Source: Candidatus Omnitrophota bacterium (GTDB taxonomy: Bacteria; Omnitrophota; Gorgyraeia; JABMRG01). From it: a DNA stretch of 64,000 nt. Within the stretch, counting starts at the first letter, position 1. Each line of letters opens with the position of its first letter. Made by a program: the position numbers and the translations under genes. Under the pieces are notes generated by a model. That model was given only the letters and a program-made list of their open reading frames with translations. It was not told the origin of the DNA and did not search any database. The stretch covers positions 145,965-209,964 of the forward strand of contig JAUVHV010000001.1 in the NCBI GenBank assembly GCA_030593065.1, read 5' to 3'. Of the stretch, positions 21,986 through 52,900 are shown one piece after another.

Positions 21986-22043
21986 ATCAGCTCAAGTTTT
22001 TCAGGAATTTTTTAAAATTCTTGTCAAAAAATTTAATATTTTT

Positions 22044-22087: not shown

Positions 22088-22195
22088 CCCTCAAAGTAGC
22101 CATTTCAGCACTTCCTTTCAGAAACTCTTTTCACTAAATAGTTGACAAATTTTAATTTTGGGTGTTTTAACTACTATAGAAACTAAGGAGGTGTC

Positions 22196-23403: not shown

Positions 23404-24491
23404 AGAATAGAGATGGCGTCAGACAGTTAGGAAAGGGCTTATATGAGGTGAACTTTCGCCCTTTCCCTGGCGCTGATAGGATCTTTAGGAGAGTTAATGT
23501 TCAATCTTTGCAGGAGGCTCGTATAAAAAGAGCAGAGCTATTAGCAGAAAGTAGTCGTTTAGGCAAGCCTTCTGAGTTGCAAAGGACGAGACAGGATAGC
23601 GATATAATTGAATTACAGAAGGTTATAGAAAATGACCTGCTTTCAGATAATAAAGGCAAGAAGACAATTAATAGATTTATATCTTGCTGGAAGACTTTTA
23701 ACCAATTCTTGCGGAAGAAATATTCTGATATAGTTAGTATCAATGAATTGAAAGCAGGTCATTTTAAAGATTATCAAGACTACATTGTTATAGAAAAGCA
23801 AAGAAAGAAAGGCTGGAGAGCAGAGCTTACTATTTTAAAGGCTATTTTTACACGTCTCAGAATAAGGAATTATTGCACAGATGATGCGATAGGAGAGTTA
23901 AATAAGCTAAAGAAGCCACCACGCAACAAAAAGCACTATGAGGATATTCCTGATTTTGCTATAAGAGAAATGCTGACATTTATCGATAAAGATAGGCCAG
24001 ATTATTATGGCCTAACAGTTTTGCTCTATAAATGCGGCTGGCGAATAGAGGAGACGACGCTATTACGCAGAGCAGATATAGAATGGCAAGGGCTTAAGCC
24101 AGGTTCGATATTAATTAGAGGGGAGACCACAAAAACAAAAGTAGAGAGACGTTTTGACATGTTTGATGATGAGTTAGCTCTTGTGATAAGGCGCTATGCA
24201 TTTGATAGAAAAAAGACCACGTGGCTTTTTTCTAATAAGCAAAATGGCAAGATACATGCTGGTCATTATAGAGAATATCTGAAAAAGGTAAGTGGAAATA
24301 TTATGGGAAAAACTATCACGCCTCATTATTTTAGGCATAGACTTTGCACCATAGCAGGTAGAATGAATATGCCGATTAATGATGTTATGGCAATAACGGG
24401 CATACGTGATATAAAGGTTCTTTTGGAATACTACCAGCACACTACAGCAGAGGGGAAAGCGAAAATATTAGCTTTAAATAGCTTAAAGTGA
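23400..24491 (+). CDS. Tyrosine-type site-specific integrase
   Basis: C-terminal catalytic region with R...HxxR...Y (TPHYFRHRLCT ... LLEYYQH). SAM-like N-terminal domain. 363 aa. Confidence 0.8.
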   Translation: MKNRDGVRQLGKGLYEVNFRPFPGADRIFRRVNVQSLQEARIKRAELLAESSRLGKPSELQRTRQDSDIIELQKVIENDLLSDNKGKKTINRFISCWKTFNQFLRKKYSDIVSINELKAGHFKDYQDYIVIEKQRKKGWRAELTILKAIFTRLRIRNYCTDDAIGELNKLKKPPRNKKHYEDIPDFAIREMLTFIDKDRPDYYGLTVLLYKCGWRIEETTLLRRADIEWQGLKPGSILIRGETTKTKVERRFDMFDDELALVIRRYAFDRKKTTWLFSNKQNGKIHAGHYREYLKKVSGNIMGKTITPHYFRHRLCTIAGRMNMPINDVMAITGIRDIKVLLEYYQHTTAEGKAKILALNSLK

Positions 24492-37049: not shown

Positions 37050-38735
37050 ATGGAACAGATAAAGCTTATAATAGATGACCTGATAAAAAAGGGTATTATT
37101 GCGGATGATCAACTGAAAGCAGCTCAGGAAGAGTCTAGAAAAAGAGGCCTTGCTATTGACAAAGTGCTGATACAACAAGGCCTTATAAAAGAAGAAGATA
37201 TTGTTAATATTATATCAGAACACATGGGTATTCCTTTTATGAATCTTTCAGATTATCTAATAGATAGTTCAGTCATAGAACTTGTGCCTGAAAGTATTTC
37301 CCAAAAGTATAATCTTATTCCTATCTTTAAGATAGGCCAGACATTAACAGTCGCAATGGCAAATCCGCAGGATATAAATGCCATAGACCAGGTAAGCTTA
37401 AAATCTAAATGTGATGTTGAGCCTGTCCTGGCTACAGAGACAGCAATCAGGAATGCCATAGACCAGTATTATGGTATATCAGGCGGAGTCGATGAAGTAA
37501 TAAAGCAGATGAATGATGCCAAGAAGTCATCCGCGATGGGGGCAGTATCTGATAGGGAGCTTGCAAAGCTTGCGGATAACGCCCCTGTTGTAAAGCTTGT
37601 TAACATGATTATAATGCAGGCTGTAAAAGATAAGGCAAGTGATATACACATTGAACCTGATGAGAAGATTTTGAGGGTAAGGTACAGAGTTGATGGCATT
37701 CTGCATGAAGGCCCAAAACCGCCAAAGGATCTTGAGGCAGCAATTATATCGCGCGTTAAAGTGCTTGCGTCAATGGATATTGCTGAACGCAGAAAACCTC
37801 AGGATGGCAGGATTATGCTTAAGATGCGGGGCAAAGAGATAGACCTAAGGGTGTCAAGTTTTCCTACTGTGTATGGTGAAAATATAGTTATAAGGCTCCT
37901 TGATAAAACCAGTGTAATGTTAGGCCTTGCTGAACTTGGCATGGATAAAGAGACACTTAAATCATTCAATACTATAATAAGAAAGCCTTTTGGCATAATA
38001 TTAGTTACAGGCCCAACAGGAAGTGGAAAGACCACAACTCTATACGCTTCTCTTTCTACAATAAATTCCCAGGAGAAGAATATAATTACAATTGAGGATC
38101 CTGTAGAGTATCAGATACCAATGATACGCCAGACGCAGATAAACCCAAAGGCCGGGCTTACTTTTGCGTCAGGCCTGCGCAGTATGCTGAGACAGGACCC
38201 GGATATTATAATGGTAGGTGAAATAAGGGACTCAGAGACAGCTGAGATAGCAACTCAGGCAGCATTGACAGGGCATCTGGTATTCTCTACACTCCATACA
38301 AACGATTCCGCGGGAGCAATAATACGTTTGATAGATATGGGCATTGAACCATTTTTGGTATCTGATTCTGTAATAGCTATATTAGCTCAGAGGCTTGTAA
38401 GGATAGTCTGCCCTAAATGCAAGGAAAAGATTGCTCCTACAGATGAGATGCTTAAGGATTTAGAATTAGAAAGATCAGGCAATATAAACATATACCGCGG
38501 AAAAGGCTGCCAAAAATGCAAAGATACAGGTTATATCGGGCGGGCGGGCCTTTACGAACTACTGGTTATAAATGATGAGATAAAGAAACTTATCATAGAG
38601 AAGGCATCCGCGGATAAGATAAAGGCTAAAGCCATAGAGGCAGGCATGAAGACGCTATATGATGATGGTATAGCAAAGGCCTTATCAGGTATTACCAGCA
38701 TAGAAGAGGTGCTTCGTGTTGCTCGTGAAGAATAG
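37050..38735 (+). CDS. Type IV pilus / type II secretion ATPase (PilB/GspE family)
   Basis: N-terminal T2SSE_N-like domain, Walker A GPTGSGKTTTLY, Asp box, Walker B, His box, and a tetracysteine motif (CPKC...CQKC). Confidence 0.85.
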   Translation: MEQIKLIIDDLIKKGIIADDQLKAAQEESRKRGLAIDKVLIQQGLIKEEDIVNIISEHMGIPFMNLSDYLIDSSVIELVPESISQKYNLIPIFKIGQTLTVAMANPQDINAIDQVSLKSKCDVEPVLATETAIRNAIDQYYGISGGVDEVIKQMNDAKKSSAMGAVSDRELAKLADNAPVVKLVNMIIMQAVKDKASDIHIEPDEKILRVRYRVDGILHEGPKPPKDLEAAIISRVKVLASMDIAERRKPQDGRIMLKMRGKEIDLRVSSFPTVYGENIVIRLLDKTSVMLGLAELGMDKETLKSFNTIIRKPFGIILVTGPTGSGKTTTLYASLSTINSQEKNIITIEDPVEYQIPMIRQTQINPKAGLTFASGLRSMLRQDPDIIMVGEIRDSETAEIATQAALTGHLVFSTLHTNDSAGAIIRLIDMGIEPFLVSDSVIAILAQRLVRIVCPKCKEKIAPTDEMLKDLELERSGNINIYRGKGCQKCKDTGYIGRAGLYELLVINDEIKKLIIEKASADKIKAKAIEAGMKTLYDDGIAKALSGITSIEEVLRVAREE

Positions 38736-39489
38736 AGCCCAGATATTGATTCCCGTTATAATGCTTATAATCATTGCTGTTATACTGATATCAGGAATAG
38801 TTATATTTTTAAGCCAAATGATAAATCTGAATCTCGCGAGATCAGAACTCACAAAGGCTGTATATGCCGCGCAGGCAGGCGCGTATAAAGCGATAGTTGA
38901 TTATAAAAATACCGGTTCAATTACCGCTGAAACAGACACTCAGATTGCGGACAATACGTACTATTCTATAGGTGGCGCCGGAATGTTCTTTCTTACAGAT
39001 TGCAGTAATCCGAGGATAAATGCAAATCGAAAATTAATAGATATTACTATGGCCAATGTAAACAGCATAGACTCTATTACAATAACTCATATGCAGGTAA
39101 GCTGGGCACCTGATGGCGGTGAGAATCTAATATCAATAGATCTAGGCCGTGGTACTAGTGAATGGAGCGGGATCGCTCAAAGCGGAACTAATATTGATAT
39201 GGCCGATTATACGATACCTGCAGGCACTACAGAGAATGATGTTTGGCTTGATTGGGAAGTTGGTACTGATATTACTAATATGACAATCACCGCGGTTCTT
39301 ACATTCAGTGACGCGAGTACACTTGAGATTACATTATTAGATGAAGGCCTTGGAGCAAGCAAAGCGATTGTTATTACCTCGACCGGTAAAATAACAGCGC
39401 GGAAGACATGGAGACGCACTATAAAAGCTGGTTACGATACTGGAACAGATGAGATAATATCATGGAATGAGGCAACAGGCCACCTGTGA
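38716..39489 (+). CDS. Hypothetical pilus-associated protein (PilX-like N-terminal TM)
   Basis: Single N-terminal TM followed by AQAGAYKAIVDY resembling PilX-family minor pilins. Start codon uncertain (GTG 38716 / ATG 38761). Overlaps the PilB stop. Confidence 0.3.
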   Translation: MLLVKNRAQILIPVIMLIIIAVILISGIVIFLSQMINLNLARSELTKAVYAAQAGAYKAIVDYKNTGSITAETDTQIADNTYYSIGGAGMFFLTDCSNPRINANRKLIDITMANVNSIDSITITHMQVSWAPDGGENLISIDLGRGTSEWSGIAQSGTNIDMADYTIPAGTTENDVWLDWEVGTDITNMTITAVLTFSDASTLEITLLDEGLGASKAIVITSTGKITARKTWRRTIKAGYDTGTDEIISWNEATGHL

Positions 39490-40244
39490 AAGCTTTCACA
39501 TTAATAGAGATAATTATAACTATTCTGATAGTTGCTATATTTATAGCTGCTACAGCGCTTATTTTGCAGCAGGCTGTGACAGGCCTGGTCTTTTCCAGTG
39601 ACACAGTAAAGGCATTAAATTTAGCACGCCTTGAGATGTCGAAGATAAACAACCTTTCTTATACAGATGTTACACTTGTGGACGGATATAACATTACAAT
39701 ACCTGGTTATGAAGGCTCTGGGTATGACTTAAACAGAAGTGTAAGTCATGTCGCGGACACAAACGAAGCCATAAAGAAGGTAGTTGTGTCAGTATATCTA
39801 GCTGGTACAATAGATATTCTCTCAAAGCTTGTTACCTATGCAGCAGATATAGATTTTGGGCCAGGAAGCGGTGGGAATACCCCCGGAACCGAAGCAGGCC
39901 AGGCAAACTCACTCTCTGTTTCAGGAGGAACTGTATCAGGAAAATTGTTCCAGAATGTGACTTTAGAGAACACATCAGCAGATGTTATTACAATAACAGC
40001 TGTGGCAGTATCATTCGCAGGCCAACCAGGTATCAAGATAAAACAGGTTGATATGAATGGTACTACAAGGTGGAGCGGGACCAAGCTTTCAGGTGTTCTC
40101 CTTTCACTCAACCCCAGTTTTTCTTTAAGCGCGTATACGACATACAGTAATACAACGCATTTTACATTCAGCAAGAATTTAACCAGTGTAACGACCATTG
40201 TGTTTACAATGTCTGATGATTCAACAAAGGCCTATATGCCGTAA
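39486..40244 (+). CDS. Prepilin-type N-terminal cleavage/methylation domain protein (pseudopilin)
   Basis: MKAFTLIEIIITILIV class III signal-like N-terminus. Confidence 0.5.
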   Translation: MKAFTLIEIIITILIVAIFIAATALILQQAVTGLVFSSDTVKALNLARLEMSKINNLSYTDVTLVDGYNITIPGYEGSGYDLNRSVSHVADTNEAIKKVVVSVYLAGTIDILSKLVTYAADIDFGPGSGGNTPGTEAGQANSLSVSGGTVSGKLFQNVTLENTSADVITITAVAVSFAGQPGIKIKQVDMNGTTRWSGTKLSGVLLSLNPSFSLSAYTTYSNTTHFTFSKNLTSVTTIVFTMSDDSTKAYMP

Positions 40245-40256
40245 AGATTATATCTT

Positions 40257-40838
40257 ATGCTATGTATTCTCAATAGAAAAAAATCATTCTCTCTTATAGA
40301 AGTTGTAATTACCATATTAGTGCTTACTGTTATAGGCGCGACTACTGCCGCGTTCTTTATGCCTATGATAAATTTATTCTTCTATTCACCAAGCCAGCTT
40401 ACGGTGAACAATACAGCACAGGAATTGCTGAACATCCTTATAGAAGGTGATAACCAGGCAAAGGGTTTAAGGTTTACAAAGTCTATAACAAGCGCGGACA
40501 AAGATGACATAACTTTTATAAACCAGGATAATGATACAGTAAGATACCGTTGGGACTCTCTTACTAATAGAATATATAGAAAAATAAACAGTCAAGCTGA
40601 AACATTAGTACCCAGCAGCTACTATGGCGATATAACAGTAAAAGGAGAACCCTCAGATTCTGAGGTATTTCAGTATTATGATGCTACGCTATCTAAGCTT
40701 TCGGTTCCTGTGGCAGATGAAACAGGTATAGAAACTATAAGAATAGATCTTATCTTTAAAGCAGGTTCAGGGAATGTAAAAGAAAATAAAGGAAAGATTA
40801 GTGTAAAAGCAGGGGTGGACATAAAGCAGTTTGGGTAG
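40257..40838 (+). CDS. Prepilin-type N-terminal domain protein (pseudopilin)
   Basis: KKSFSLIEVVITILVL N-terminus. Confidence 0.5.
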   Translation: MLCILNRKKSFSLIEVVITILVLTVIGATTAAFFMPMINLFFYSPSQLTVNNTAQELLNILIEGDNQAKGLRFTKSITSADKDDITFINQDNDTVRYRWDSLTNRIYRKINSQAETLVPSSYYGDITVKGEPSDSEVFQYYDATLSKLSVPVADETGIETIRIDLIFKAGSGNVKENKGKISVKAGVDIKQFG

Positions 40839-40887
40839 TCCTAGATACTGCACCCAGCATCTAGTATCCAAGATAGGAGTATTAGTT

Positions 40888-42099
40888 ATGCCGACATATA
40901 AATATCGAGTAAGGGATAAGCATGGGCGTGCTGTATCAGGTATAATGGGTGGAGCTACTGAGAAAGAGGCAGTAGAAAGCTTAAAAAAGATGGGTTATAC
41001 GCCAATAAGCATGAAAGAGCAAAAGCCAAGCAGAAATATACTGAATATAGAGCTTTTTAACCCCGTAAAAGCAGAAGATAAGGTCTTATTTACCAGGCAG
41101 ATGTATACCCTGCTTAAGGCAGGCGTACCTATGTTAACAGGGCTTGAAGCTGTTGGCGAGCAGACAGATTCAAAAGTATTAAAAGATAAGATATTAAAGA
41201 TAAAGGCTGATGTAGAGTCTGGAACAAGTTTTTCAGATTCTTTAGCAAAATATCCAAAGATATTTCCAGCATTATATGTAAGCATGGTTAAGTCTGGCGA
41301 AGCATCCGGAAAACTGGATGAGATTATGAAGAGTTTGGCAGAGATGGGTGAGTATGATATGGATATAAGCTCAAAGATAAAGTCTGCAACTCGTTATCCT
41401 ATGCTTGCTCTGGGAACATTGGTAGTCGCGTTCTTTGTAATTGTGCTTTTTGTAATACCAAGGTTCACATCCTTTTTTTCAAGTTTTAACATGGAGCTTC
41501 CGCTTCCAACGCGCATTCTATTTGGATTATACAGAATAATACATGGTTATTGGTACTGGAGCTTATTGGGTATTATTGGTATTTGCGTGGGGTTTGTAAA
41601 ATTTATTAATACGTCTTTTGGCAGAGAGAGATGGGATATGTTTAAATTAAAGATACCTGTGTTTGGGCCTGTCATATTTAAACTTGCTATGTCACGTTTT
41701 GCAAAGACAACATCTATACTCATTTCAAGCGGCATAGACATGTTAAAGACGCTTGAACTTACAGCGGATACAGCTGGAAATACTATTATAGCAAGGGCTA
41801 TAAGAGACATAAAAGATGGTGTAAATCAGGGGCAGGGTTTAGCAGCACCAATGAGAGTAAGCAAGTTTTTCGCTCCTATCGTGATACAGATGGTCTCTAT
41901 TGGTGAGGAGTCAGGAAAACTTGATGAGCTTCTCTTGAGCGCGTCAGAGCATTATGACCAACAGGTAGATTATACTATGAAGAATCTTACAACAATGATT
42001 GAGCCCCTGTTAATATTTGTATTAGGTTTTATGGTATTATTTGTTGCGCTCGGTGTCTTTCTGCCTATGTGGAACATAGTGCAGATTGTAAATCAATAA
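40888..42099 (+). CDS. Type IV pilus / T2SS platform protein (PilC/GspF family)
   Basis: Two GspF-type repeats, three TM segments. Start at ATG 40888 (MPTYKYRVRDKHGR). The ORF-track 5' extension from 40831 is unlikely to be coding. Confidence 0.8.
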   Translation: MPTYKYRVRDKHGRAVSGIMGGATEKEAVESLKKMGYTPISMKEQKPSRNILNIELFNPVKAEDKVLFTRQMYTLLKAGVPMLTGLEAVGEQTDSKVLKDKILKIKADVESGTSFSDSLAKYPKIFPALYVSMVKSGEASGKLDEIMKSLAEMGEYDMDISSKIKSATRYPMLALGTLVVAFFVIVLFVIPRFTSFFSSFNMELPLPTRILFGLYRIIHGYWYWSLLGIIGICVGFVKFINTSFGRERWDMFKLKIPVFGPVIFKLAMSRFAKTTSILISSGIDMLKTLELTADTAGNTIIARAIRDIKDGVNQGQGLAAPMRVSKFFAPIVIQMVSIGEESGKLDELLLSASEHYDQQVDYTMKNLTTMIEPLLIFVLGFMVLFVALGVFLPMWNIVQIVNQ

Positions 42100-42114: not shown

Positions 42115-42510
42115 ATGGCGAGAGGCAGTAATGAAAAAGCAAGGTCGCTGGTTGAACTCATAATAACGTGGATTGCGATATTTATAATTATAGGGTTTCT
42201 TATCACGCGGGCAAGCATTCTTTTGACAAGCGCAAAAAAAGCAATACTTACAAATGAATTGAGCAACATAAGGCTTGCCGTCTCTTTGTACCATATATTG
42301 CATAAAACCTACCCAGATAATATTGAGATGCTTATAGACAAGACCTATAAGATACATGCACGCAAGGGGCGTGTATTAAAAGGCACATTTCTTAACCGCC
42401 TAAAACACGATAAGCAGGGAAGGCTAAAAGACCCTTTTGGCAATATTTATCTTTACAATCCGCAGACAGGTATGGTAAAATCGCAAACAGATAGTTATAA
42501 AGATTTGTAA
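42115..42510 (+). CDS. Pilin-like / pseudopilin-like small protein (non-canonical leader)
   Basis: SLVELIITWIAIFIIIGF hydrophobic N-terminus resembling a prepilin helix but lacking the G-F cleavage motif. Confidence 0.3.
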   Translation: MARGSNEKARSLVELIITWIAIFIIIGFLITRASILLTSAKKAILTNELSNIRLAVSLYHILHKTYPDNIEMLIDKTYKIHARKGRVLKGTFLNRLKHDKQGRLKDPFGNIYLYNPQTGMVKSQTDSYKDL

Positions 42511-42526
42511 AAGGAGGGGCATTATT

Positions 42527-42940
42527 ATGAGGGAAAAAGGTTTTACATTAATTGAGCTTGTTATGGTTATTGTGATCCTTGGTATTCTCGCAGCAGTGGC
42601 TCTACCGAAATTTATCGACTTAACCAGTAACGCTAAGATTGCCGCTACAAAAGGAGGCCTTGGAGCTGTTCGTTCTTCAGTTGCGATAAAATACGCGAAT
42701 CGTGTCGCGAATGATAGCGGAACGGATTTCCCTACTTTGACCCTTACAGATTTCTTAGGCGCAAAGTATCCTAGAAATGAATTGAATGACAAAACAGATA
42801 TAACATTTGTTTCTACCCCAGTTGCAGGTACAAACACAACAAGTATTACTTACGGTTGGTGGTATATTACAGGTTCAGGTACAGAGGCAGGCCGGTGCGG
42901 CGCGTATTCCGATGGTACAGAGGATGTATCTGAGTGGTAA
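42527..42940 (+). CDS. Type IV major pilin (PilA/GspG-like)
   Basis: MREKGFTLIELVMVIVILGILAAVALP canonical prepilin leader and N-methyl-Phe site. 137 aa. Confidence 0.75.
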   Translation: MREKGFTLIELVMVIVILGILAAVALPKFIDLTSNAKIAATKGGLGAVRSSVAIKYANRVANDSGTDFPTLTLTDFLGAKYPRNELNDKTDITFVSTPVAGTNTTSITYGWWYITGSGTEAGRCGAYSDGTEDVSEW

Positions 42941-43012
42941 TAACCGAATAGAGTGTCTCTTACATCAATATTAGGGGAATGACAAATATGTCATTCCCCT
43001 TTTTTAAATATT

Positions 43013-45391
43013 ATGGAAAAATTTATTTATAAGAATAGATATCTTATCCTGGTATCGTTTATCTTTACAGCATTGCTCTGCATTGTGTTTAAAGATGTTA
43101 TATTCTCAGATTATATCTTTGCAAGAAGGGATATAGCAAGGCTGTATCTTCCTGTAAGGGAGTTTGTGGTAAGCAGCATAAAGAACTTTGAAGCTCCTTT
43201 ATGGAATCCATATGTATTTTGCGGCGCACCTCTGCATGCCTCTATCCACCACGCAGTCTTCTACCCTTTAACGATAATATATTATATAGGTGATTTTACA
43301 AGGGGTTTTAGCTTTTTTATATTATTCCATATATTCTTATGCGGATTATTTACTTATATATTTACACGTTCAATAAGTATATCTAAGCTGGGAAGTTTCT
43401 TAGCTGGTTTTAGTTTTATGTTTAGCGGCTATGTAATGTCAACGATATGTTTAACTACAGTACTAAGTTCTGTAACGTGGTTTCCCCTCGTGCTGTTCTT
43501 ATTTTTAAAATCTTTAAAGAAAAGAACTTTATTCCTCCCTGTTGCCTTAGGAGTGGTTTTGTCTCTTATGTTTATAGCGGGAGACCCGCCAACATTTATT
43601 GTAACCTGCGCGCTATTATTTCTTTATAGCCTTTACCTGATCATAGAGGGGTTTATCAAAAAGAGGGAGTTAGATCTTTTTATTATATACAGTATGTTTG
43701 CGGCATCAGTAGCGTTCCTATTGCTTACCGCATTCCAGATAATCCCCGCGATAGAATACTATTCGCAGACTGTCAGGACCAGCATGTCCTGGCAGGAAGC
43801 CTCAGCATGGAGCCTGCCGTATAATCACATCTTAAGCTTTATAATACCATACTTCAATGAACCTGCTTTTTTCAGCAAAAACTTTTTAGAAGGGCAGAAA
43901 TGGCTCGACAACTATTACCTTGGAATCATAACACTTTTGCTCGCTTCTTTCGCGCTCTTTTATAGCAGGAGAAAAAAAATTACATGGTTTCTCTTCGCAA
44001 TGGGGATATTTTCAATAGCCTTGTCACTTGGAAGATATTTTTTTCTATTTCCGATTTTTTTTAAAGCCTTTCCGGGGTTTAGTTTTATACGCTATCCGGT
44101 AAGGTTTTTATTTATCTTCTCATTCTCAACATGCGTATTATCCGGCATGGGTTTCGACGCGCTAAAGATGTTATTTTGTAAAGGCAGGCCAGAGAAGATA
44201 GGAGGGGCTTTTCTGATAATAGGTTTTTTAACGGCGATTATCGCGATTATATTTATGGCTATTCCGGAAAAGATTATCGCGTTTATAATGCATTATTCAG
44301 GAAAGATGTTTCATTTTGATAGCGGGTTTGTTTACGCGGATTTGTTCAACTTAAGACGATCGCTTTTTTATGTAAGCAGTTTTGGAGTTTTTCTTTTCCT
44401 TTTCTCCAGGATAAAACAGAGAAAACTTATAATTGTCCCTATACTTATCTTAGCTGTATTTGACCTTCTTTTTACAAATACAGATTATAATTTTATTGAA
44501 GACAGAGAATATTTTAAGCGGCCCACAAAAAACATAAGTTTTCTTTTGCGGGATAAATCTATTTTTAGGATATTTCCTTCTCCATACTCATATGATATGT
44601 TCTCTGTGATACGTGGCGAGTCATTACATAAGGCTGTAGAGACGTCCAAAGACCTGCTTGCCAACAATCAAATGATGCAATTTGGTATTTCAGACGCTTG
44701 GGGTTATGATTCAAGCAAACTTAGTTCCAATAACGAGATGGTAAAGCTTATATATCTTTCTAAGCTTCCTAACGATACAAATCTTCTTAATCTATTAAAT
44801 GTAAAATATATATCATCGCATGGAGATCTAAGCGCCTATGGGTACAAGAAGGTAAGTACCACAGAAAAGTCTACCATCTATCAGAATATACGATATCTTC
44901 CAAGGGCTATGCTGCTCAGGAACATTCTCTCCTTCGACAATGATAATGATATGTTAGATTATATGAGCACGCGTAAATTTAACCCCAAGAAAGAAGTCCT
45001 GTTAAAAGAGGACATTATCTTATCCGGTTCTTTTGACAGGAATATAAGAAAGGACACCCTCTCTATAACAGAATATAGCCCAAGAAGAATAGCAATAGAT
45101 GTATCCGCGAAAACAGACGCTGTTTTGCTTTTAAGCGATACCTATTATACAGGGTGGAAGGTTTATTTAGATGGGGTAAATGAAAAGATATATTGCGCAG
45201 ACTTCTTTTTACGTGCTGTTTTAATACCCGCGGGAAAACACAAAGTTGAGTTTGTATATGACCCATGGAGTTTTAAGATAGGGTCTATAATCAGTTCTAT
45301 CAGCTTGTTATTACTTATACTATATATAGCTATATCGGTTTTAAGGTTGACCAGTAAAAAATTATTAAGTATAATAAACAAAAGATGTTGA
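43013..45391 (+). CDS. Large polytopic membrane protein, YfhO-like / GT-C-like (candidate pilin glycosyltransferase)
   Basis: 792 aa, over 12 predicted TM helices, large C-terminal soluble domain. Located immediately downstream of the major pilin gene. Confidence 0.35.
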   Translation: MEKFIYKNRYLILVSFIFTALLCIVFKDVIFSDYIFARRDIARLYLPVREFVVSSIKNFEAPLWNPYVFCGAPLHASIHHAVFYPLTIIYYIGDFTRGFSFFILFHIFLCGLFTYIFTRSISISKLGSFLAGFSFMFSGYVMSTICLTTVLSSVTWFPLVLFLFLKSLKKRTLFLPVALGVVLSLMFIAGDPPTFIVTCALLFLYSLYLIIEGFIKKRELDLFIIYSMFAASVAFLLLTAFQIIPAIEYYSQTVRTSMSWQEASAWSLPYNHILSFIIPYFNEPAFFSKNFLEGQKWLDNYYLGIITLLLASFALFYSRRKKITWFLFAMGIFSIALSLGRYFFLFPIFFKAFPGFSFIRYPVRFLFIFSFSTCVLSGMGFDALKMLFCKGRPEKIGGAFLIIGFLTAIIAIIFMAIPEKIIAFIMHYSGKMFHFDSGFVYADLFNLRRSLFYVSSFGVFLFLFSRIKQRKLIIVPILILAVFDLLFTNTDYNFIEDREYFKRPTKNISFLLRDKSIFRIFPSPYSYDMFSVIRGESLHKAVETSKDLLANNQMMQFGISDAWGYDSSKLSSNNEMVKLIYLSKLPNDTNLLNLLNVKYISSHGDLSAYGYKKVSTTEKSTIYQNIRYLPRAMLLRNILSFDNDNDMLDYMSTRKFNPKKEVLLKEDIILSGSFDRNIRKDTLSITEYSPRRIAIDVSAKTDAVLLLSDTYYTGWKVYLDGVNEKIYCADFFLRAVLIPAGKHKVEFVYDPWSFKIGSIISSISLLLLILYIAISVLRLTSKKLLSIINKRC

Positions 45392-45458: not shown

Positions 45459-47108
45459 ATGGAAAACATATTTTACGTTATAAGCAGATTATGTTCTAAG
45501 TTTGCTCCTCTGCCATTATCTCTCGGTATAGAGATAAGCTCCAACTCTATCAAGACAGCATTGGTAAAACAGGATTCCCACGGCTCAGCTTCTCTTATAG
45601 ATTACGAAATAACGCAGGTAAACAATAAAGATAATGCCCCAATCATATTTAAAGAGATATTAAAGTCTAAAGGTATCTCATCATCAGTTAATGTAAAGTT
45701 TGTCGTCTCGGGAGCTGATGTGGATTCCAAAAGGGCAAAACTTTCCTCCATGCCGGAAGAGGAGATAGCCGCGGCGTTAAGATGGCAGGCTAAAGAACAT
45801 TTTCTCTTTAACATAGATGAGTCTATGCTTGATTTTGAAGTGCTGAGATTAGCAGAGAAACAGGATGGTTCAGGCGGAGTTGAGGTTATAGCCAATATAG
45901 CAAAGAATGAAATCATAGATAGCAGAATATCACTATTAAAAAATACAGGTATTGTCCCCTCTGTTATCATACCTGTTGCTTATGGTTTGCGTAATATTTA
46001 CAATATCTCAAATATGCAGGACGGAGATAATCCGGTAGCAATTATAGATATAGGTGCTGATACAACTACTATTGTAATAATAAAAGATAAGAATATAAGG
46101 TTTATAAGGCAGATAAGCTGTGCCGGAGGTGACTGCACAAAGGCTATGTCCGGCGCATTTGTTTCGGGTAAAGGAAGAATAGAACTTTCTCCTGAGAAAG
46201 CTGAAGCATTTAAAAAAGAATTTGGAATTCCAAATTGTTCTGAAGGAGAGCTTAAGGACGGGGTATCTGCCGCACAAATTGCTTCTATGCTGAGGCCTGT
46301 GCTTGAGAAGCTTGGTAACAATATAAGGCGTTCATTCGATTACTATATAAGCCAGTTTCAAGAAGAAAATATATCAAAAATATACATAAGCGGCGGAACG
46401 TCCAGCATGAAGAATATAGAATCTCAACTCTTTAAGATGTTATCTGTGCCTGTTGAGAAACTTAATGTTCCAAAGAGCATAAAACTAAAAATTCCAAAAG
46501 AAAAGGTTAAAAACCTTAATGATGATTTTGCGTTTATAGCGCCTGCTATTGGAGCTGCTTTGCACAATATTGAAGGATTAAATCTTATTCCTTTAATATA
46601 TAAAAAAGATAAAATAAGGAAGATCGAGAAGATTTCCGCAAGGCTGGCGTTTATATTTATTGTAATGCTGTTATCCGTATTTTATCTTTTTAATCTTGGC
46701 CATGAAGGGGTATTAGTGAAGATATTAAATGCACAGCGCCCACAATGGCAGAAGCTACAGGAAGTGCGGGAGCTTCACGCGCGGATAACTCAGAAGAATG
46801 CAATAATGAACCAAACGCTAAAGAGGCAAATACCTTTATATTATCTATTTAAAGCGTTGGCTAACGCAATACCAAGAGAGATTTATCTGCGCGATCTTAG
46901 CATAGAAGAGCAAGCTACCAGTATGAGCATGGAAGGGATTGTCGTGGAGACAAGCGAGCTAGCAGAGATTACATTGTCAAAATTCATAAAGTCTTTGGAA
47001 GATTCTATATTTTTTCACGATGTTTTATTAGGTTCAACCCAGGATGTGGAGATATCAGGCAGACAGGCGTTAGAGTTTAAGATAAGCTGTGGATTGGGAA
47101 GAGGTTAG
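45459..47108 (+). CDS. PilM-PilN fusion (type IV pilus assembly)
   Basis: N-terminal actin-like PilM (LGIEISSNSIKTALVK). At about aa 370, LNLIPLIYKKDK (PilN INLLP-like) is followed by a TM helix. Confidence 0.6.
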   Translation: MENIFYVISRLCSKFAPLPLSLGIEISSNSIKTALVKQDSHGSASLIDYEITQVNNKDNAPIIFKEILKSKGISSSVNVKFVVSGADVDSKRAKLSSMPEEEIAAALRWQAKEHFLFNIDESMLDFEVLRLAEKQDGSGGVEVIANIAKNEIIDSRISLLKNTGIVPSVIIPVAYGLRNIYNISNMQDGDNPVAIIDIGADTTTIVIIKDKNIRFIRQISCAGGDCTKAMSGAFVSGKGRIELSPEKAEAFKKEFGIPNCSEGELKDGVSAAQIASMLRPVLEKLGNNIRRSFDYYISQFQEENISKIYISGGTSSMKNIESQLFKMLSVPVEKLNVPKSIKLKIPKEKVKNLNDDFAFIAPAIGAALHNIEGLNLIPLIYKKDKIRKIEKISARLAFIFIVMLLSVFYLFNLGHEGVLVKILNAQRPQWQKLQEVRELHARITQKNAIMNQTLKRQIPLYYLFKALANAIPREIYLRDLSIEEQATSMSMEGIVVETSELAEITLSKFIKSLEDSIFFHDVLLGSTQDVEISGRQALEFKISCGLGRG

Positions 47109-47696
47109 ATGAAAAAGGCCGTTATAAAAAACAAGAAGCAATTGTTAAGCATATCCGCAATAGTGTTTGTTGTTTTAATACTTTTTGTATTTGCCTATAT
47201 ACCACAACATCAAAAAGTGAGTAGCCTGAAGAAACAGGTGCAGGATATAGATGAGCAGATAAACCTTACCAAGTCTATACTTGGTGATATGAAGAGATTG
47301 GGGCCTTTTTTAGGCCAGATGCAACAGGAGATGAAGCGTTTTGAGGATAGGCTTCCTACTACGAAAGAGATAGCGTCAGTAGTATCGGAATTATCAAACC
47401 GTTTTAAAAAAGCCTCTTCACTTGAGGTTTTAAGCATAAGGCTGCAGAAACCTTTGCCTGTTTTAGATAACGATTACAAGCCTGTCTATATGGATGGAAA
47501 GCCACTTAATAAAATAGAGATAGAGCTTAAGTTTCGGGCTACTTATGAGGACTTAGCAGAGTATATCAGAAAGGTGCAGGATAGCCCAAAGACACTTGCA
47601 AGCATAGACAGTATAAAGATAAGTAAAGACGACAGCATAACTCCAAGCTTAGGTATTGTGGCTTTATTTACTATCTATGTAATCGATAGGGGTTGA
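47109..47696 (+). CDS. PilO-like pilus assembly protein
   Basis: N-terminal TM, coiled coil, then ferredoxin-like domain. Position after pilMN. Confidence 0.4.
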   Translation: MKKAVIKNKKQLLSISAIVFVVLILFVFAYIPQHQKVSSLKKQVQDIDEQINLTKSILGDMKRLGPFLGQMQQEMKRFEDRLPTTKEIASVVSELSNRFKKASSLEVLSIRLQKPLPVLDNDYKPVYMDGKPLNKIEIELKFRATYEDLAEYIRKVQDSPKTLASIDSIKISKDDSITPSLGIVALFTIYVIDRG

Positions 47697-47703: not shown

Positions 47704-48207
47704 ATGAATTTTATCGATTTTAAAAATCTTAATACAAAATCAAAAATAGAGATTATAGCCACCTCTTTTATGATAATCGTTTTTATACTGATACTCGCAA
47801 ATAGTTTAAAGACTGTATTTAAGTCAAAGAAGTTGACCAGCGAAAATTTTTATATGTCAACGGATGCGTTTAAGGAGATAATAAAAAGAGATGTTATAAG
47901 CCCAAAAGATACAGGGGTAGTCGGTAACCGGGATATATATAAGGATATAAAAAAGGAAGAAGATCTTAAGCCCTGGGGCAGAGACCCTTTTTCTGAGAAA
48001 ACCGCTTTAAGCGTCGGGAGTATGCCTATATCAAATCTTAAGGTCGAAGGCATCTTTTTCCAGCACGATCAAACTCCACAGGCAATCATAAATGGAGAGG
48101 TCTTAGAAGAAGGTGATAAAATAGGGGATATTACTATAATAGAAATAAATAAAGATACAGTCATAGTAACTGATGGAGAGAAGAATTATAACTTGCATCT
48201 ATGGTGA
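47704..48207 (+). CDS. Hypothetical membrane-anchored protein (PilP-like position)
   Basis: Single TM. Last gene of the pilMNO-like run. Confidence 0.25.
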   Translation: MNFIDFKNLNTKSKIEIIATSFMIIVFILILANSLKTVFKSKKLTSENFYMSTDAFKEIIKRDVISPKDTGVVGNRDIYKDIKKEEDLKPWGRDPFSEKTALSVGSMPISNLKVEGIFFQHDQTPQAIINGEVLEEGDKIGDITIIEINKDTVIVTDGEKNYNLHLW

Positions 48208-48567: not shown

Positions 48568-49835
48568 ATGAAAAAACTCGTCATACTTATAATCATTATT
48601 ATTTCCACGTTTAATAGTATCCCTCGATTACACTCGGAACGAGCAAGCCAGGGCGATGCCCTGAGGCCCATGGCTACACGTATATTTCCTGAATATAATC
48701 AAATAATAGAACATATCAAGAGAGACCATCGTTATTGGAAAAGAACCGGCGAATCTGCTTTAGGAGAGGTAAGCCAGTTTAAAGTAAGCGTTAGAGAACA
48801 CCCAGGCAATCCTATACTTATTCCTGATTATAAGAATGAGGTTTTTGTATTAAATCCAGGTGCGATAAGAATAGGGGATACATATTATTTAGCTGTACGG
48901 TCATCAACTCGTGATAAGCTATCAAGGATATTTATTGCAACCAGTAAGGACGGTTACAATTTTCAAAGAAAGCCCGGATTCTTTTATGCGATTCCTGGTA
49001 TAGATTCAAATGGTGGCATCGAAGACTCGAGACTTTTAATTGTAAAAGAGTTTCCTAACAGAGTATTTATGCATTTTACCTATTGCCATGATGGTATATT
49101 TGAAATTGCCGAAAGCTCTATTGCTATGCAGGACTTTATAAATATAAACCCTGCAGGGTGGAGCCCTATGAAAAGGCTCTTTCCCGGAAAGAGGGATAAA
49201 GATTTTGTGCTGATACCGCGAATGTTGAATAATAGATACTATGCCTACCACCGGCCTGAATTTGAAAGCGGACAATTAGTTGGACGAGGCATACATCTAG
49301 CTTATACAGATAACCTTATTGACGGCACATGGGAGGACTTGGGCATGGTAATGGCTCCCAGGAAAGATTACTGGATAGGAGCAGGGGTGGTACTAGAGGC
49401 AGAGAATGCCTGGATTTTGATTTATCATGAAGCGCAACAGCTTGCTGATACGGACAAACGCTATGTATGCAAAATTGCTCTAATAGATAAAGAAAATCCG
49501 GCAAATATTCTTTATGCTCCTGAAGAGCCGATACTTGAAAGCAATCCATCTGAGACAGAGATGCTTAAAAAGACAATAGGGCTTGAGTCTTGGGTCCCCA
49601 ATGTTAAATTTATAAATGGCGCTATAGTATTGGGGAAAGAGAGGCTGTGACTGAAGGAAGTGAAATTGTTCTTTATTATGGTCTTAATGATACGGTTGTA
49701 TCTGCTGCAATATTAAAAATTGAGAAAATGCCGGATATTTCAAATGGAAGAAAGGCAGTGCCTAATAAGCCCTTCTCGGGTATAAATTTCGGCCAAAATA
49801 AAACTGTTTTAATAAATATTGACTCTGCTGCCTAA
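48568..49835 (+). pseudogene. GH130-like (DUF377) glycosidase/phosphorylase, apparent frameshift near 49645
   Basis: ORF 48568-49650 has the GNPIL / beta-propeller signature. The overlapping ORF at 49647 continues with EIVLYYGLNDTV (C-terminal GH130 hallmark VLYYGAADT) in another frame. Confidence 0.4.
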
Positions 49836-49989: not shown

Positions 49990-52900
49990 ATGCTATATTT
50001 AAAATTAATACATAGTAAATTTATTTCAATTATACTATTACTTGCTATTAGTGTTACTACGTCTGCCTATGGCAGTACTAACCCCGCGCTTTTTACCAGA
50101 AAATCCCATGCGCAACGTTACTTAAAAAAATCTGGCAATAAATTGCCCCTCGATTTTACCGGTAAAGACTCATCGTCGGCTATAAACATTCCCCGGAGAT
50201 TAGGGGTTGTGGTGGAGCGTTATAATGGTGAAAGTGGTTATACAGTTATACATATTCAGGACTCCCATATCAACCCTACAGCTCAGTTTAATATAGCAAG
50301 CATAATAGAAGAGATTGCCACAAAATACAACACATCTCTTATGTGCTTAGAAGGTGCTTCTGCAGAACTTGATATATCCTTTTATGATAAGTTTCCTGAT
50401 GATGAAGCAAAGCGCAGAATAGCAGGTTTTTTTGTGGAAAGAAGCCTTTTTACGGGTGCTGAGTTCTATAAAATATTACACAAAGCCCAATATTTGAAAA
50501 CTATAGGCGTAGAAGATAAAAAGGCCTATTTAGAACACCTTTTTTACCATAGAAAAAATCGGCTAAGTAGAGAGGTTGTATTAGGATCTCTTAAGGAGCT
50601 TGAAAGAGGCCTAATCAGTTTAAAGAGTAGAGTATATTCCAAAAGTTTAAAAGACTTAAGCGGAAAAAGCTGTCTTTATCATTTGAAGCAGTTTAAGCTG
50701 CCTGAATATCTTAATATATTAGAGAAATATTCTAAAAAAGCAAAGATAGATATCTCTAGATATGAGAACCTTATTAAAATGCTTGCGCTTATGGAAAAAG
50801 AGAAAGAGCTAGATTTTCAAGCAGCGGCAACGGAAAGAGAAGCACTAGTTCTTTATCTTTCAGAATTACTGCCTGCCAAAAAGCTGAGAGAGCTTTCCGC
50901 AATGAGCCTTAATTTTAAACTCAACAAGAGATCGGACATTGAATTCTATACCTATCTTGAACAATTCCTCAATAGCCAGTTGTTGCAAGTTAAAGATGCA
51001 ATACGCGCTATGCGCTACAACCATCTTATTGCTTACATAGATTATCTTAAATTCTCAAAGTCTATCGATTATCTTATGGTTTATGATGAGGCAGAGCGCT
51101 TAGAAGAGGAGGTTTCAAAAGCACTTTGCACAAATTCAACACAACAGAGGCTTGTTGAATACACCAAAGCTGTAAGTATCCTGCTGGATTTTTACGAGTT
51201 GAAGCTTACCAGCGGCAGGTTAGATTACATGGATAGAAATCAGGATTATTTTGATATTCAAAACATAATACAGTTTTTGAAAGAGGCTTGCAATAAATAT
51301 GGTTTGCCTCTTGAAGATGCTCTCCTTGTATCTATAGACAAGATGTTTATTGAAAACACTAAAAATTTTTACGAGATAGCGCTGAAACGGGATATAGCCA
51401 TTACAGAAAATACACTAAAATCTATGAGATGTCAGCGTAAAGACAGGGCCATACTAATAACAGGGGGGTTCCATACCCGGGGCATAACTAATATCTTAAA
51501 AGAGAAGGGTATATCCTATGTTGTAATATGCCCTAACATCGGCTTAATGGATTCAGAAAGGCTTTATTTAGATAGATTAGCAGGCAGGCTGCAGGATGTT
51601 TCAGAGCTAACAGAGCTTTTTAGCCAGACACTAACAGCCCCTCTTGTTACAGGGGATGCTTCAGTAGCAGAAGTAAGCTTTATCGCGCAAGAAGCATTTA
51701 AAATGTGCTGGAATATTTCAAATAATGCGAAAAAACTCAACACCCCAGCTCATAAAGCTGAAGAGATGGTGCGTCAGATTAACAGCCGTAGCATAAAAAT
51801 ATACCCATATGACAAGAAAAACGACGCCTATATGTTAGATAAAGGGGGAGTGTTAAAAGCAATTTATGATTCTGACTATCCCGTAGTTGTTAGGTTTATG
51901 ATAGAGGGTATTTCTGATTATGTTATTTTAGGTTTTAGGGTGGAAGAAGACGGCATATCTGCTTTGTCTACACACTTTCCTGATGACCTGCAGGGTAAAA
52001 GGTTAAATTCGCAAGTTTTCGAAGCCTTAGGCAATGTGATAGAGAAAGGCGCAATACTTAGGGCAAAGATATCTAATTCTATGACCAGGAAGAGATTGTT
52101 TAGTGCTTTTGAAGTAGTAGCTGGTAGTATAAAAAAGAGAGGGGCGGGGGATAATATTGTCGTTGATGAAAATCTTATTGCGGATGCCTTTTCAAAAACA
52201 CTTATGGGTAATCTATTTGCAAGGGCCGGGTTTAGCAATTTCAAACTTATGCTTAAGAGAAATAATGGTAGCTATATGAGGGGCCTTGAGGCCTTGACCA
52301 ATATTTTACTTGCGAGCAGAGACGGAAAAAAGACAGGAGAATTTTGTCTTGAGGCTGTAAAATTATATAGCAGGCAACCCACCCTTCCTCAGCCCCAGGA
52401 TGGCGAAAAGGCCGAGCCTATAAAATCCTCATCCGCGGGCAAGGAGCAGGCCAAAGAAGATATCACCATGGAACGCTTATCAGAAAAGGAGAGAGAGGCT
52501 ATTGCTGACGTTTCAGATAAGGTCTTGGCAGTATATCCAAAATTTAAGATACATAAAAAGGAGCTTAACTACTTTATAATGCTGATAGGCCCAGGCGACT
52601 TCTCAAAGGCATTTGCTAATAATCTTGTGGCAGTTGTCAATGCCCTCAAGACAGTCTTTAGAAATTGGGATGAAGATAAACTCACTGCTCTCATCAAACA
52701 TGTTACCCAAGATGCCTTTACAAAGGCATTTGCTAATAATCCAGCGGCAGTTGCTCATGCTCTCAGGATAATCTTTGCTGACTGGGATAAATACACCATC
52801 TTTATAACTCACATTAATAAAGATGACTTCTCAAAAGCATTTGCTGATAATCCTATAGCAGTTGCTTATGTCCTCAGGACAATTTTTGCTAATTGGGATA

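Follow-up and report, generated by a model that had tools for sequence, protein, structure and literature searches.

The gene directly behind the major pilin gene in a type IV pilus operon of this Omnitrophota genome encodes a 792-aa polytopic membrane protein, here called the window protein after the window, i.e. the whole 64-kb stretch of DNA that was analysed, and this protein is a YfhO-family glycosyltransferase of the GT-C fold. It belongs to a previously undescribed YfhO subgroup that, in dozens of uncultured species, is encoded immediately after a pilin gene, and because of this position the transfer of a sugar to pilin is the function that it most likely serves. The window protein is probably a periplasm-facing enzyme that moves a monosaccharide from polyprenyl phosphate to pilin, and as such a functional analog of TfpW and not an en-bloc oligosaccharyltransferase.

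The family assignment derives from a match to YfhO (PF09586; E=4.2e-24, 85.4 bits against a gathering cutoff of 28.5) that covers aa 82-640 together with a second stretch. The same domain is present in all close homologs, and a Pfam scan of the window protein at E<=0.01 returned YfhO as the sole family, with no Wzy_C, STT3 or TPR match. Hydropathy and the secondary structure of the AF2 model reveal 14 TM segments in an N-in/C-in topology, with all cytoplasmic loops rich in Lys and Arg. A search of PDB sequences found no relative of the window protein (best E=0.084, spurious), and a fold comparison was used in place of a YfhO-family structure; by this comparison, the membrane part displays a GT-C fold whose top structural neighbours include STT3, AglB and PglB, with AftD, AftA, PMT and ArnT scoring equally well. 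Assignment to an unrelated transporter family, which the first-pass annotation of this DNA had considered fatal to its proposal, was rejected, with MFS, SGLT and MATE proteins matched only at insignificant Foldseek scores (E>0.3, probability <=0.1). That annotation had described a YfhO/GT-C-like polytopic protein, a description borne out by the domain match, the 14 TM segments and the fold. Its large soluble C-terminal domain is likewise real, comprising 268 aa, but it is not the end of the protein, as a final TM anchor comes after it. This periplasmic domain begins with mixed α structure and continues into a β-sandwich, and it bears the family-wide residues R519, YYxGW (711-715), D720, R734 and H743. 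Its C-terminal part resembles the end of the NCBIfam PgfM2 model (30.7 bits over 72 residues, far under the cutoff), which is the sole similarity of the window protein in NCBIfam.

Residues conserved across the family lie essentially all in the periplasmic loops or the periplasmic domain, and those kept in the window protein include D40, PxWxP at 62-66, E248 and R255, D484, R519 and the YYxGW motif, such that the extracytoplasmic loop motifs whose absence would have spoken against the earlier proposal are present. Asp40 is located nine residues past TM1 on the periplasmic side and provides the acidic residue in the first extracytoplasmic loop that is characteristic of GT-C enzymes, here within an RRD sequence bearing a single invariant Asp and not a DDX motif. 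It is invariant in 32/32 sequences, and within an 83-sequence set it is conserved in 94% of in-clade and 97% of out-clade members. An hhalign comparison of the family alignment with E. coli ArnT gave a probability of 2.4%, and the pairing of D40 with ArnT D31 (DE motif) is thus not statistically supported; it is suggestive only and was left out of the evidence.

The features of the locus are collected in Table 1. The YfhO ORF begins 72 nt after the pilin stop codon and ends 67 nt ahead of the PilM-PilN fusion, and the neighbours identified by Pfam agree with the position given in the first-pass annotation, directly after the pilin gene and before pilMN. No recognisable Shine-Dalgarno sequence precedes the YfhO start codon, and a strong one (AAGGAGGGG) precedes the major pilin gene. 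Homologs of the minor-pilin-like genes are found in related pilus loci, in some of which they have moved downstream of YfhO, while the GspG-like pseudopilin occupies the same position before the pilin in related loci (L005, L014, L017, L018, L025, L040, L054 and L056). For the 167-aa protein, 17 different related loci carry a homolog in the equivalent place (18 matches, with L003 and L011 being one contig), and the Omnitrophota loci yielded no secretin. A 360-aa ORF at 48568-49650, located after tRNA-Glu and lacking a Pfam match, was considered as a glycan-related partner and rejected, as none of the related loci contains a homolog of it; an 83%-identical relative carries other genes in its place.

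Table 1. Features of the type IV pilus operon and of the YfhO-family protein encoded within it (coordinates are window positions).
Feature	Coordinates	Strand	Basis
PilB-type assembly ATPase, first gene of the pilus operon	37050..38735	+	Pfam T2SSE 480.9 bits, MshEN 77 bits
Three minor-pilin-like genes (257, 252 and 193 aa)	38716..40838	+	Prepilin-type hydrophobic N-termini; N_methyl 20.4 bits (193-aa protein)
PilC platform protein	40831..42099	+	Pfam T2SSF 198.5 bits, two repeats
GspG-like 131-aa pseudopilin, non-canonical N-terminus	42115..42510	+	Weak T2SSG match, 18.1 bits
Major pilin, 137-aa prepilin, proposed acceptor	42527..42940	+	Pfam N_methyl 32.9 bits, leader MREKG|FTLIE
Rho-independent terminator/attenuator between pilin and YfhO	42973..43006	+	Terminator scan: 12-bp stem (6 G-C), 4-nt loop, U6
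YfhO-family GT-C glycosyltransferase gene, 792 aa	43013..45391	+	ATG-started ORF
First periplasmic loop (aa 31-94), predicted catalytic loop; D40 (codon 43130-43132), PLWNP (aa 62-66)	43103..43294	+	
Periplasmic soluble domain (aa 491-758) between TM13 and TM14	44483..45286	+	DSSP of model, hydropathy, conservation
14th (last) TM segment, anchoring the periplasmic domain; K/R-rich cytoplasmic tail after it	45287..45343	+	Hydropathy 2.7, helix 752-776
PilM-PilN fusion, 549 aa	45459..47108	+	PilM_2 105.7 bits, PilN 31.4 bits
PilO	47109..47696	+	PilO 25.5 bits
167-aa PilP-position protein, final operon gene	47704..48207	+	Weak CdsD_C and T2SSB matches

The linkage of YfhO to pilin was followed in a census that covered 80 species-level genomes. 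In an NJ tree without support values, the window protein falls into a clade of ~48 species-level genomes of the Omnitrophota, Desulfobacterota-like bacteria and Nitrospinota, all of them MAGs or SAGs, with MAG taxon labels that may be wrong. A prepilin gene is located directly upstream in 41/43 assessable clade loci, compared to 1/31 outside the clade, and the apparent exceptions (L015, L016, L022, L033 and L036) were recognized by eye as detection artefacts or pseudogenes caused by an Ala at -1, a masked N-run, frameshifts or tandem copies. Relatives at 83-30% identity all share the gene context pilC-pilin-YfhO-...-pilMN, and the adjacency of pilin and YfhO persists despite relocation of the minor pilins, tandem copies of either gene and insertion of a GT2 gene. 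The inverse test, made in metagenomes, is in agreement: YfhO follows 8/8 independently recovered close relatives of the pilin that have any downstream sequence, compared to 8/38 of the pilins that match in the N-terminal helix only. More than 150 clusters (50% identity) score within the pilus-linked range.

The mature major pilin is ~132 aa in length and terminates in ...GAYSDGTEDVSEW. Its single Cys precludes a disulfide pair, and Ser and Thr account for ~24% of the globular part. The hairpin behind its gene (42973-43000, followed by U6) folds at -21.1 kcal/mol (z=-4.37), a value that 0/200 shuffles equalled, and a hairpin with a T-run (<= -8 kcal/mol) is found downstream of the pilin stop codon in 27/38 related loci. 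Pilin-accessory cassettes of Pseudomonas are built in this way, with the accessory gene directly 3' of the pilin gene and a Rho-independent terminator after the pilin (PMC11841053), and both the adjacent accessory gene and the terminator are found in the window. The terminator could alternatively mean that YfhO is transcribed separately from pilin. The major pilin was aligned with 38 pilins of other YfhO-linked loci. An aromatic motif at the pilin C-terminus is strongly enriched among YfhO-followed pilins (21/22 compared to 26/102), in a sample that is not phylogenetically independent. This motif was not taken as evidence of a recognition signal, as pilins of one and the same subtype, RVWxNxSxY[ST]x[WY], have a YfhO next to them in some loci and not in others.

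An active GT-C glycosyltransferase might nonetheless serve an acceptor other than the major pilin, namely the minor pilins, another periplasmic part of the pilus, or an envelope polymer (LPS or a peptidoglycan-associated glycan) modified locally for passage or function of the pilus. The best-studied of the characterised YfhO proteins act on teichoic acids and not on proteins (PMC5836110), and the Omnitrophota loci, with no secretin detected, imply an unusual envelope architecture. Minor pilins do follow directly after YfhO or its GT2 in several loci, but they and the other pil genes vary in position, whereas the constant neighbour is the major-pilin-type gene directly upstream, and the type of pilin and the presence of YfhO co-vary in the inverse test. 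A terminator separates the YfhO gene from the pilin, but this succession of pilin, terminator and accessory gene is the one known from pilin-specific modifiers (PMC11841053). An acceptor other than the major pilin is considered unlikely, albeit with some claim to attention.

The donor for transfer to pilin would be a polyprenyl-phosphate-linked sugar at the extracytoplasmic face, as supported indirectly by the GT2 enzymes of relatives, which resemble polyprenyl-phosphate hexose synthases in sequence. A GT2 gene (~225-235 aa) adjoins YfhO within 800 bp in 11 clade loci, and GT2 genes are also present in 8 out-clade loci; the best NCBIfam matches of the locus GT2s are AglJ, PpgS, dolichyl-phosphate hexose transferase, ArnC and PgfS. 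Several Omnitrophota loci have the GT2 embedded between YfhO and the minor pilins, and there are compact pilin-YfhO-GT2 cassettes (e.g. L013, L018 and L025). Within the 64-kb window, neither Pfam scans nor an HMM built from the relatives' GT2 genes detected a GT2 synthase. A phmmer search with E. coli GtrA (YfdG), ArnE and ArnF gave no flippase match in the window or any locus, a single-sequence search being insensitive for such small and divergent proteins. Of the three-component system (GT2, flippase and GT-C), these searches detected the GT-C component alone in the window.

The first-pass annotation had proposed a pilin glycosyl- or oligosaccharyltransferase by comparison with TfpO/PilO of Pseudomonas group I. 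The glycosyl part of this claim is strengthened by the 41/43 adjacency, the terminator layout and the GT2 genes in the operons of some relatives, but the oligosaccharyl part is not, as the family precedent is monosaccharide transfer, and of the comparison only the gene position stands, making it a positional analogy only, since the window protein has no Wzy_C and is unrelated to TfpO/PilO/PglL. An enzyme that, like those proteins, transfers a preassembled oligosaccharide en bloc from undecaprenyl-pyrophosphate to pilin would fit the position 3' of pilA shared with TfpO (bioRxiv 10.1101/2020.04.19.049825) and the presence of the oligosaccharyltransferases STT3, AglB and PglB among the top structural neighbours, although the monophosphate-donor enzymes AftD, AftA, PMT and ArnT are structurally their equals in score. 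It is nevertheless improbable: the translation contains no WWDYG/WWD motif, there is no Pfam match to either oligosaccharyltransferase type, and the cassette GT2s of relatives resemble polyprenyl-phosphate hexose synthases and not the initiating phosphoglycosyltransferases that pyrophosphate-linked glycans require. Moreover, all characterised YfhO-family enzymes use a polyprenyl-monophosphate monosaccharide donor (PMC5836110; bioRxiv 10.1101/2024.05.05.592596), and by analogy the family precedent of YfhO, PgfM1 and PgtC2 points to this type of transfer over an en-bloc one. Least credible is a non-catalytic, TfpY-like accessory or assembly factor that has lost its glycosyltransferase activity and chaperones or docks pilin in the membrane. 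In its favour, non-enzymatic accessory proteins are known after pilA in other bacteria (PMC11841053), no donor-pathway genes were detected in the window, and H79 (Q in 92% of the clade) and T713 (P in nearly all) depart from the consensus. Against it, the putative catalytic Asp and ~35 other periplasmic residues common to non-pilus YfhO proteins are kept clade-wide, 11 relatives carry a GT2 gene linked to YfhO, and an 800-aa, 14-TM enzyme scaffold would make an unlikely chaperone.

The preferred reading, transfer of a monosaccharide to pilin, extends from the observed family, fold, topology, residue conservation, gene linkage, terminator and GT2 partner of relatives to a mechanism whose catalytic activity, donor type, pilin acceptor, and site and identity of the sugar we infer. 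An inner-membrane GT-C enzyme of the YfhO family would have been recruited as a dedicated pilin accessory. A cytoplasmic GT2, encoded within the pilus operon in some relatives and presumably elsewhere in this genome, would take a monosaccharide from its nucleotide sugar and attach it to polyprenyl (undecaprenyl) phosphate, and the lipid-linked sugar would then be flipped to the periplasmic face. There, the YfhO protein, by way of Asp40 together with E248, R255, D484, R519 and YYxGW, would transfer the sugar to the membrane-anchored pilin, most likely to Ser/Thr in its Ser/Thr-rich globular part and before polymerisation by PilB/PilC/PilMNO. Besides O-linkage to Ser/Thr, the attachment might involve the N-x-S/T sequon that one pilin subfamily carries close to its C-terminus, or conceivably Trp. 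The terminator after the pilin gene would ensure that little enzyme is made in comparison with pilin, its very abundant substrate.

Most of what is known about pilin glycosylation comes from a small number of proteobacterial pathogens and concerns two enzyme families; in these pathogens, the modification influences resistance to phages, evasion of immunity and the functioning of the pilus. With the subgroup described here, the Wzy_C-type TfpO and the ArnT/TPR-type TfpW may well be joined by a third class of enzymes dedicated to glycosylating type IV pilins, one of broad phylogenetic range, carried as a mobile pilin-terminator-YfhO(-GT2) cassette among Omnitrophota, Desulfobacterota-like bacteria and Nitrospinota and paired with an unusual type of pilin that is short, Cys-free and Ser/Thr-rich and bears a C-terminal aromatic. 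If so, glycosylation of the pilus would be the rule and not the exception in these uncultured and partly host-dependent bacteria. Modification of pilins by YfhO-type enzymes would bring a third enzyme family for pilin glycosylation to at least three poorly studied phyla, and the YfhO family, with known substrates so far being teichoic acids and streptococcal surface proteins, would gain a defined protein substrate in diderms. Type IV pili of Omnitrophota have been implicated in a predatory or host-attached lifestyle, and glycan-decorated pili would then be a surface feature of this phylum. The pilin-YfhO-GT2 cassettes are of a size that would allow them to be reconstituted directly in a heterologous host, and they could be developed into a simple module for glyco-engineering.

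Among known systems, the N-oligosaccharyltransferases STT3, PglB and AglB resemble the window protein in fold only. TfpO/PilO of P. aeruginosa group I shares with it a gene directly after pilA, a polytopic architecture and a periplasmic C-terminal region, with pilin O-glycosylation as its function, but TfpO/PilO/PglL form an unrelated, Wzy_C/O-antigen-ligase-like family that transfers en bloc from an Und-PP-oligosaccharide. The GtrABC systems rely on a GT2 enzyme that synthesises the polyprenyl-phosphate sugar, on a flippase and on a GT-C transferase active in the periplasm (PMC11194591), the same three-part logic as proposed here, although GtrC modifies O-antigen and is not of the YfhO family.

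Closer in sequence is YfhO of B. subtilis, which has 13 TM segments, the last two separated by an extracytoplasmic loop of 389 aa, and has the GT2 Und-P-sugar synthase CsbB as its partner (PMC5836110). This protein and its Listeria homolog share the Pfam family and the overall architecture found here (~13 TM segments, the last two flanking a very long extracytoplasmic loop), but their acceptors are lipoteichoic and wall teichoic acids of Gram-positive hosts and their gene is co-transcribed with csbB, whereas the window protein belongs to a diderm-type candidate phylum and a type IV pilus operon with no adjacent GT2 in the segment. The YfhO-family enzymes PgtC2 (S. pyogenes; with GtrB) and PgfM1 (S. 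mutans; with PgfS) O-glycosylate Ser/Thr-rich regions of proteins with Und-P-derived monosaccharides (bioRxiv 10.1101/2024.05.05.592596). They are likewise YfhO-domain GT-C proteins supplied with a GT2-made Und-P-monosaccharide, and GT2s of the related pilus cassettes match the PgfS model, but they act on disordered tails, present on many adhesins and membrane-associated proteins, and not on pilins.

A better analog than TfpO is, on present comparison, TfpW, the GT-C enzyme of P. aeruginosa group IV (Pa5196/PA7), which is encoded 3' of pilA and glycosylates pilin (bioRxiv 10.1101/2020.04.19.049825). TfpW displays 11 predicted TM segments, an ArnT-like core, a DDX motif, a proline-rich Emb-like motif and a C-terminal TPR domain (bioRxiv 10.1101/2020.04.19.049825), whereas the window protein, of another sequence family, bears 14 TM segments, the YfhO domain, RRD and a β-rich domain closed by a TM segment, with no TPR. 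TfpW polymerises D-Araf, and the window protein gives no pointer to the sugar that it uses. Both are GT-C-fold membrane glycosyltransferases with a gene immediately 3' of the major pilin, and TfpW draws on a polyprenyl-phosphate monosaccharide donor, the genes for whose synthesis and GtrA-like flippase may be located elsewhere, to modify Ser/Thr of its target pilin (bioRxiv 10.1101/2020.04.19.049825).

The 792-aa open reading frame (ORF) directly 3' of the major pilin gene was found exactly as the first-pass annotation had described it; it starts with ATG, and one type IV pilus operon surrounds it in a window of approximately 38% G+C whose genes lie almost all on the + strand (see table). Its product belongs to the YfhO family and to the GT-C superfamily: YfhO (PF09586) is its sole Pfam family (85.4 bits against a cutoff of 28.5), its database relatives are named 'YfhO family protein [Candidatus Omnitrophota]', and the only NCBIfam match is a short C-terminal one to PgfM2, a streptococcal YfhO-type enzyme. 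No solved structure is related to it by sequence.

At least eight related loci from other genomes (L005, L014, L017, L018, L025, L040, L054 and L056) keep the GspG-like gene, with its non-canonical prepilin N-terminus (ARSLVELIITW...), just before the major pilin gene. The closest relatives have a small ORF of 70-89 aa between YfhO and pilMN that is absent from the window, where this gap is 67 nt. Neither the scanned ORFs of the window nor the Omnitrophota loci L001-L005 yielded a secretin (PilQ), unlike the Desulfobacterota-like locus L007, in which a secretin follows pilMNO. Shortly 3' of the operon, a giant ORF displays visible internal repeats (DFSKAFADNP-type units and KSSSAGKE spacers) and is missing at the corresponding position of an 83%-identical relative (L173).

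Features of the window and of related loci (L handles), with coordinates in each
Feature	Coordinates	Strand	Remark
tRNA-Ser(gga), then apparent small integrated mobile element	17168-24491
Rep ORF2/G2P-like protein	17402-17956		mobile element
ORF, no Pfam match	18407-19363	-	mobile element
ORF, no Pfam match	19766-21121		mobile element
Dam-type N6-adenine methyltransferase	21125-21985		mobile element
Serine recombinase	22196-22984		mobile element
Tyrosine integrase	23400-24491		mobile element
PilB	37050-38735
Three minor-pilin-like genes	38716-40838
PilC	40831-42099
GspG-like gene	42115-42510		131 aa
Major pilin (prepilin)	42527-42940		137 aa
Hairpin and U6	42973-43006
YfhO-family ORF	43013-45391	+	792 aa
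PilM-PilN fusion	45459-47108
PilO	47109-47696
167-aa gene	47704-48207		followed by tRNA-Glu
Giant ORF	49990-58851		2953 aa, no Pfam match whatever
842-aa protein	60497-63025		TolC-like OEP domain (141.6 bits), weak AMIN domain
Small ORF, L001	9487-9726		no Pfam match
Small ORF, L002	9447-9686		no Pfam match
Small ORF, L003	5354-5566		no Pfam match
Small ORF, L173	12405-12674		no Pfam match
Pilin, then two YfhO paralogs, L033	5117-10250		tandem duplication
Three tandem pilin genes, then frameshifted YfhO, L016	6426-7880
Two tandem YfhO genes, L026	4-4381
GT2-methyltransferase fusion, L041	10484-11884		beside YfhO
GT2-methyltransferase fusion, L080	10236-11789	-	beside YfhO
GT2-methyltransferase fusion, L032	10398-11804	-	beside YfhO
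Separate methyltransferase with GT2, L045	2767-3519		next to YfhO

The pairing of pilin and YfhO genes extends well beyond this contig. Context look-ups placed the homologs of 83, 48, 48, 47, 36, 32 and 30% identity (7/7) in a pilC-pilin-YfhO-...-pilMN-pilO operon; a Nitrospinota homolog of 28% identity is not in one. For a wider census, one genome per species was scanned and the best 80 loci were taken, with ORFs called mechanically, YfhO, PilB/C/M/O and GFTLIE-type prepilins scored, and prepilins recognized by motif. A neighbor-joining tree of 83 YfhO proteins, built without support values, places the window protein in a clade of 48, all from uncultured organisms, with taxon labels (which may be wrong for MAGs) of Omnitrophota (including SAGs, and MAGs labelled 'Planctomycetia'), Desulfobacterales, Thermodesulfobacteriota, Syntrophorhabdus, Syntrophaceae and Nitrospina. 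In the window and 36 other clade loci, a same-strand prepilin gene ends within a few hundred bases upstream of YfhO, and inspection revealed an upstream pilin in four more (one with Ala at -1, one split by an N-run, one frameshifted, and one ahead of a tandem YfhO pair). Five loci have no upstream sequence and are not assessable; in only two others, a Firestonebacteria and a Nitrospinaceae MAG, is YfhO clearly elsewhere. A prepilin thus directly precedes YfhO in 41 of 43 assessable clade loci versus 1 of 31 outside the clade (Fisher 3e-17, uncorrected for relatedness, the counts not being phylogenetically independent). Tandem arrangements of either gene occur in L016, L026 and L033. In an exhaustive search, 49,131 YfhO-like cluster representatives were recovered at E<=1e-3, and the 150th best (264 bits) still has a score at which genome hits are mostly linked to a pilus, so the pilus-linked group is large.

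The inverse test, a metagenome scan anchored on the pilin, indicates that this coupling is specific to particular pilin types, as it is among the Pseudomonas pilin groups, since YfhO follows all eight pilins of at least 50% full-length identity with any downstream sequence, 6/15 at 42-48% identity, and 8/38 of those matching in the generic N-terminal helix alone. The 39 pilins encoded before YfhO genes are of a distinctive type: short (mature length mostly 115-133 aa), mostly Cys-free (30/39), Ser/Thr-rich (12-30% of the globular part, and at least 15% in all but three) and ending in W, F or Y in 34 cases, typically as [ST]-x-aromatic-COOH, with GAYSDGTxDTSxW as the Omnitrophota form. In the metagenome set an aromatic C-terminal residue is found in 21 of 22 YfhO-followed pilins versus 26 of 102 other prepilin-type ORFs; it is a pilin-family trait rather than a strict marker, because pilins of the same subtype are found both next to a YfhO gene and without one. 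In one subfamily (RVWxNxSxY[ST]x[WY]) there is an N-x-S/T sequon close to the C-terminus, so more than one type of sugar-pilin linkage is conceivable. The adjacency persists despite rearrangement of the remaining operon, the minor pilins being found either ahead of pilC or behind YfhO, depending on the locus; that the true acceptor is something other than the major pilin, such as these or an envelope polymer, seems rather unlikely.

The 72-nt gap between pilin and YfhO contains a 12-bp G+C-rich hairpin followed by U6 (fold energy -21.1 kcal/mol, z=-4.4), and 27 of 38 related loci, among them almost every Omnitrophota one, have a comparable hairpin and T-run after the pilin stop. Pilin-accessory cassettes are described as commonly having a Rho-independent terminator behind the pilin gene that attenuates the accessory gene (PMC11841053). 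The YfhO ATG stands immediately 3' of the U-tract without a Shine-Dalgarno sequence; that of the pilin is AAGGAGGGG. The same start arrangement in L001 and L003 suggests deliberately weak or structure-gated translation.

A potential source of donor is encoded beside some of these genes. With E. coli GtrB as probe and then an HMM made from the hits, 11 clade loci were found to have a gene for a cytoplasmic glycosyltransferase (GT2; PF00535) of approximately 225-235 aa no more than 800 bp from YfhO; it often overlaps the YfhO stop and, in five loci from Omnitrophota (L013, L018, L023, L025 and L087), is embedded between YfhO and the minor pilins. In L022, 7 kb separate YfhO from a full-length GtrB/PgfS-like gene. 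Outside the clade, eight YfhO genes likewise adjoin a GT2, as in Bacillus csbB-yfhO. In the 64-kb window no GT2 is present, and no homolog of GtrA or ArnEF could be detected. The GT2 of Desulfobacterota-like pilus loci is fused to a SAM-dependent methyltransferase (L041, L080 and L032), and in L045 a separate one accompanies it, which may point to a methylated sugar or to a further modification. In NCBIfam the GT2 genes match best AglJ, PpgS, dolichyl-phosphate hexose transferase, ArnC and PgfS, always below the equivalog cutoff, and all these families make polyprenyl-phosphate monosaccharides; transfer of an oligosaccharide en bloc is, by comparison with monosaccharide transfer, very improbable.

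Hydropathy and the helices of a structure model predict 14 TM segments, a cytoplasmic N- and C-terminus, and cytoplasmic loops that are all rich in Lys/Arg. On the periplasmic side the prediction places loop 1 (aa 31-94), aa 241-297, aa 346-362 and a domain of 268 aa (aa 491-758) that the final TM helix anchors; B. subtilis YfhO is reported to have this architecture (PMC5836110). Residues common to pilus-linked and non-pilus YfhO proteins are nearly all periplasmic and are retained here: D40, P47, PxWxP (62-66), G71 and P85 in loop 1; Q242, P245, E248, R255 and P279; P354; D484; and R519, YYxGW (711-715), D720, R734 and H743. D40 occupies the position where GT-C enzymes have a catalytic or metal-binding Asp, although the hhalign alignment that pairs it with D31 in the loop-1 DE motif of E. 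coli ArnT has a probability (2.4%) too low to be evidence. A role in pilus assembly without catalysis can scarcely be credited.

Glycosylation of the pilin by the YfhO enzyme from a polyprenyl-phosphate monosaccharide is the best supported and probably the correct model. A GT2 enzyme would make the lipid-linked sugar, which would be flipped to the periplasmic face, where the YfhO enzyme would move it to the membrane-anchored pilin prior to assembly, with the terminator keeping the ratio of enzyme to substrate low. Precedents exist in the YfhO-family protein O-glycosyltransferases PgtC2 and PgfM1, and in the pilA-linked GT-C enzyme TfpW. A pilus-linked YfhO enzyme is credible as a pilin modifier. 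Full-text searches on YfhO with pilin or type IV pili, and on pilin glycosylation with GT-C, gave no account of YfhO genes at pilus loci, and neither did the titles and abstracts of papers pairing Omnitrophota with type IV pili.

The proposal that this protein is a candidate pilin glycosyl- or oligosaccharyltransferase, in the position of Pseudomonas TfpO, stands as regards its GT-C family and its place after the pilin. It does not belong to the TfpO/PglL family, whose Wzy_C domain it lacks. Nor is it a member of the STT3 family or of the TfpW family, having neither the TPR domain nor the DDX motif of the latter. It would work in a manner like that of TfpW and of the streptococcal Pgf and GtrB-PgtC2 systems.
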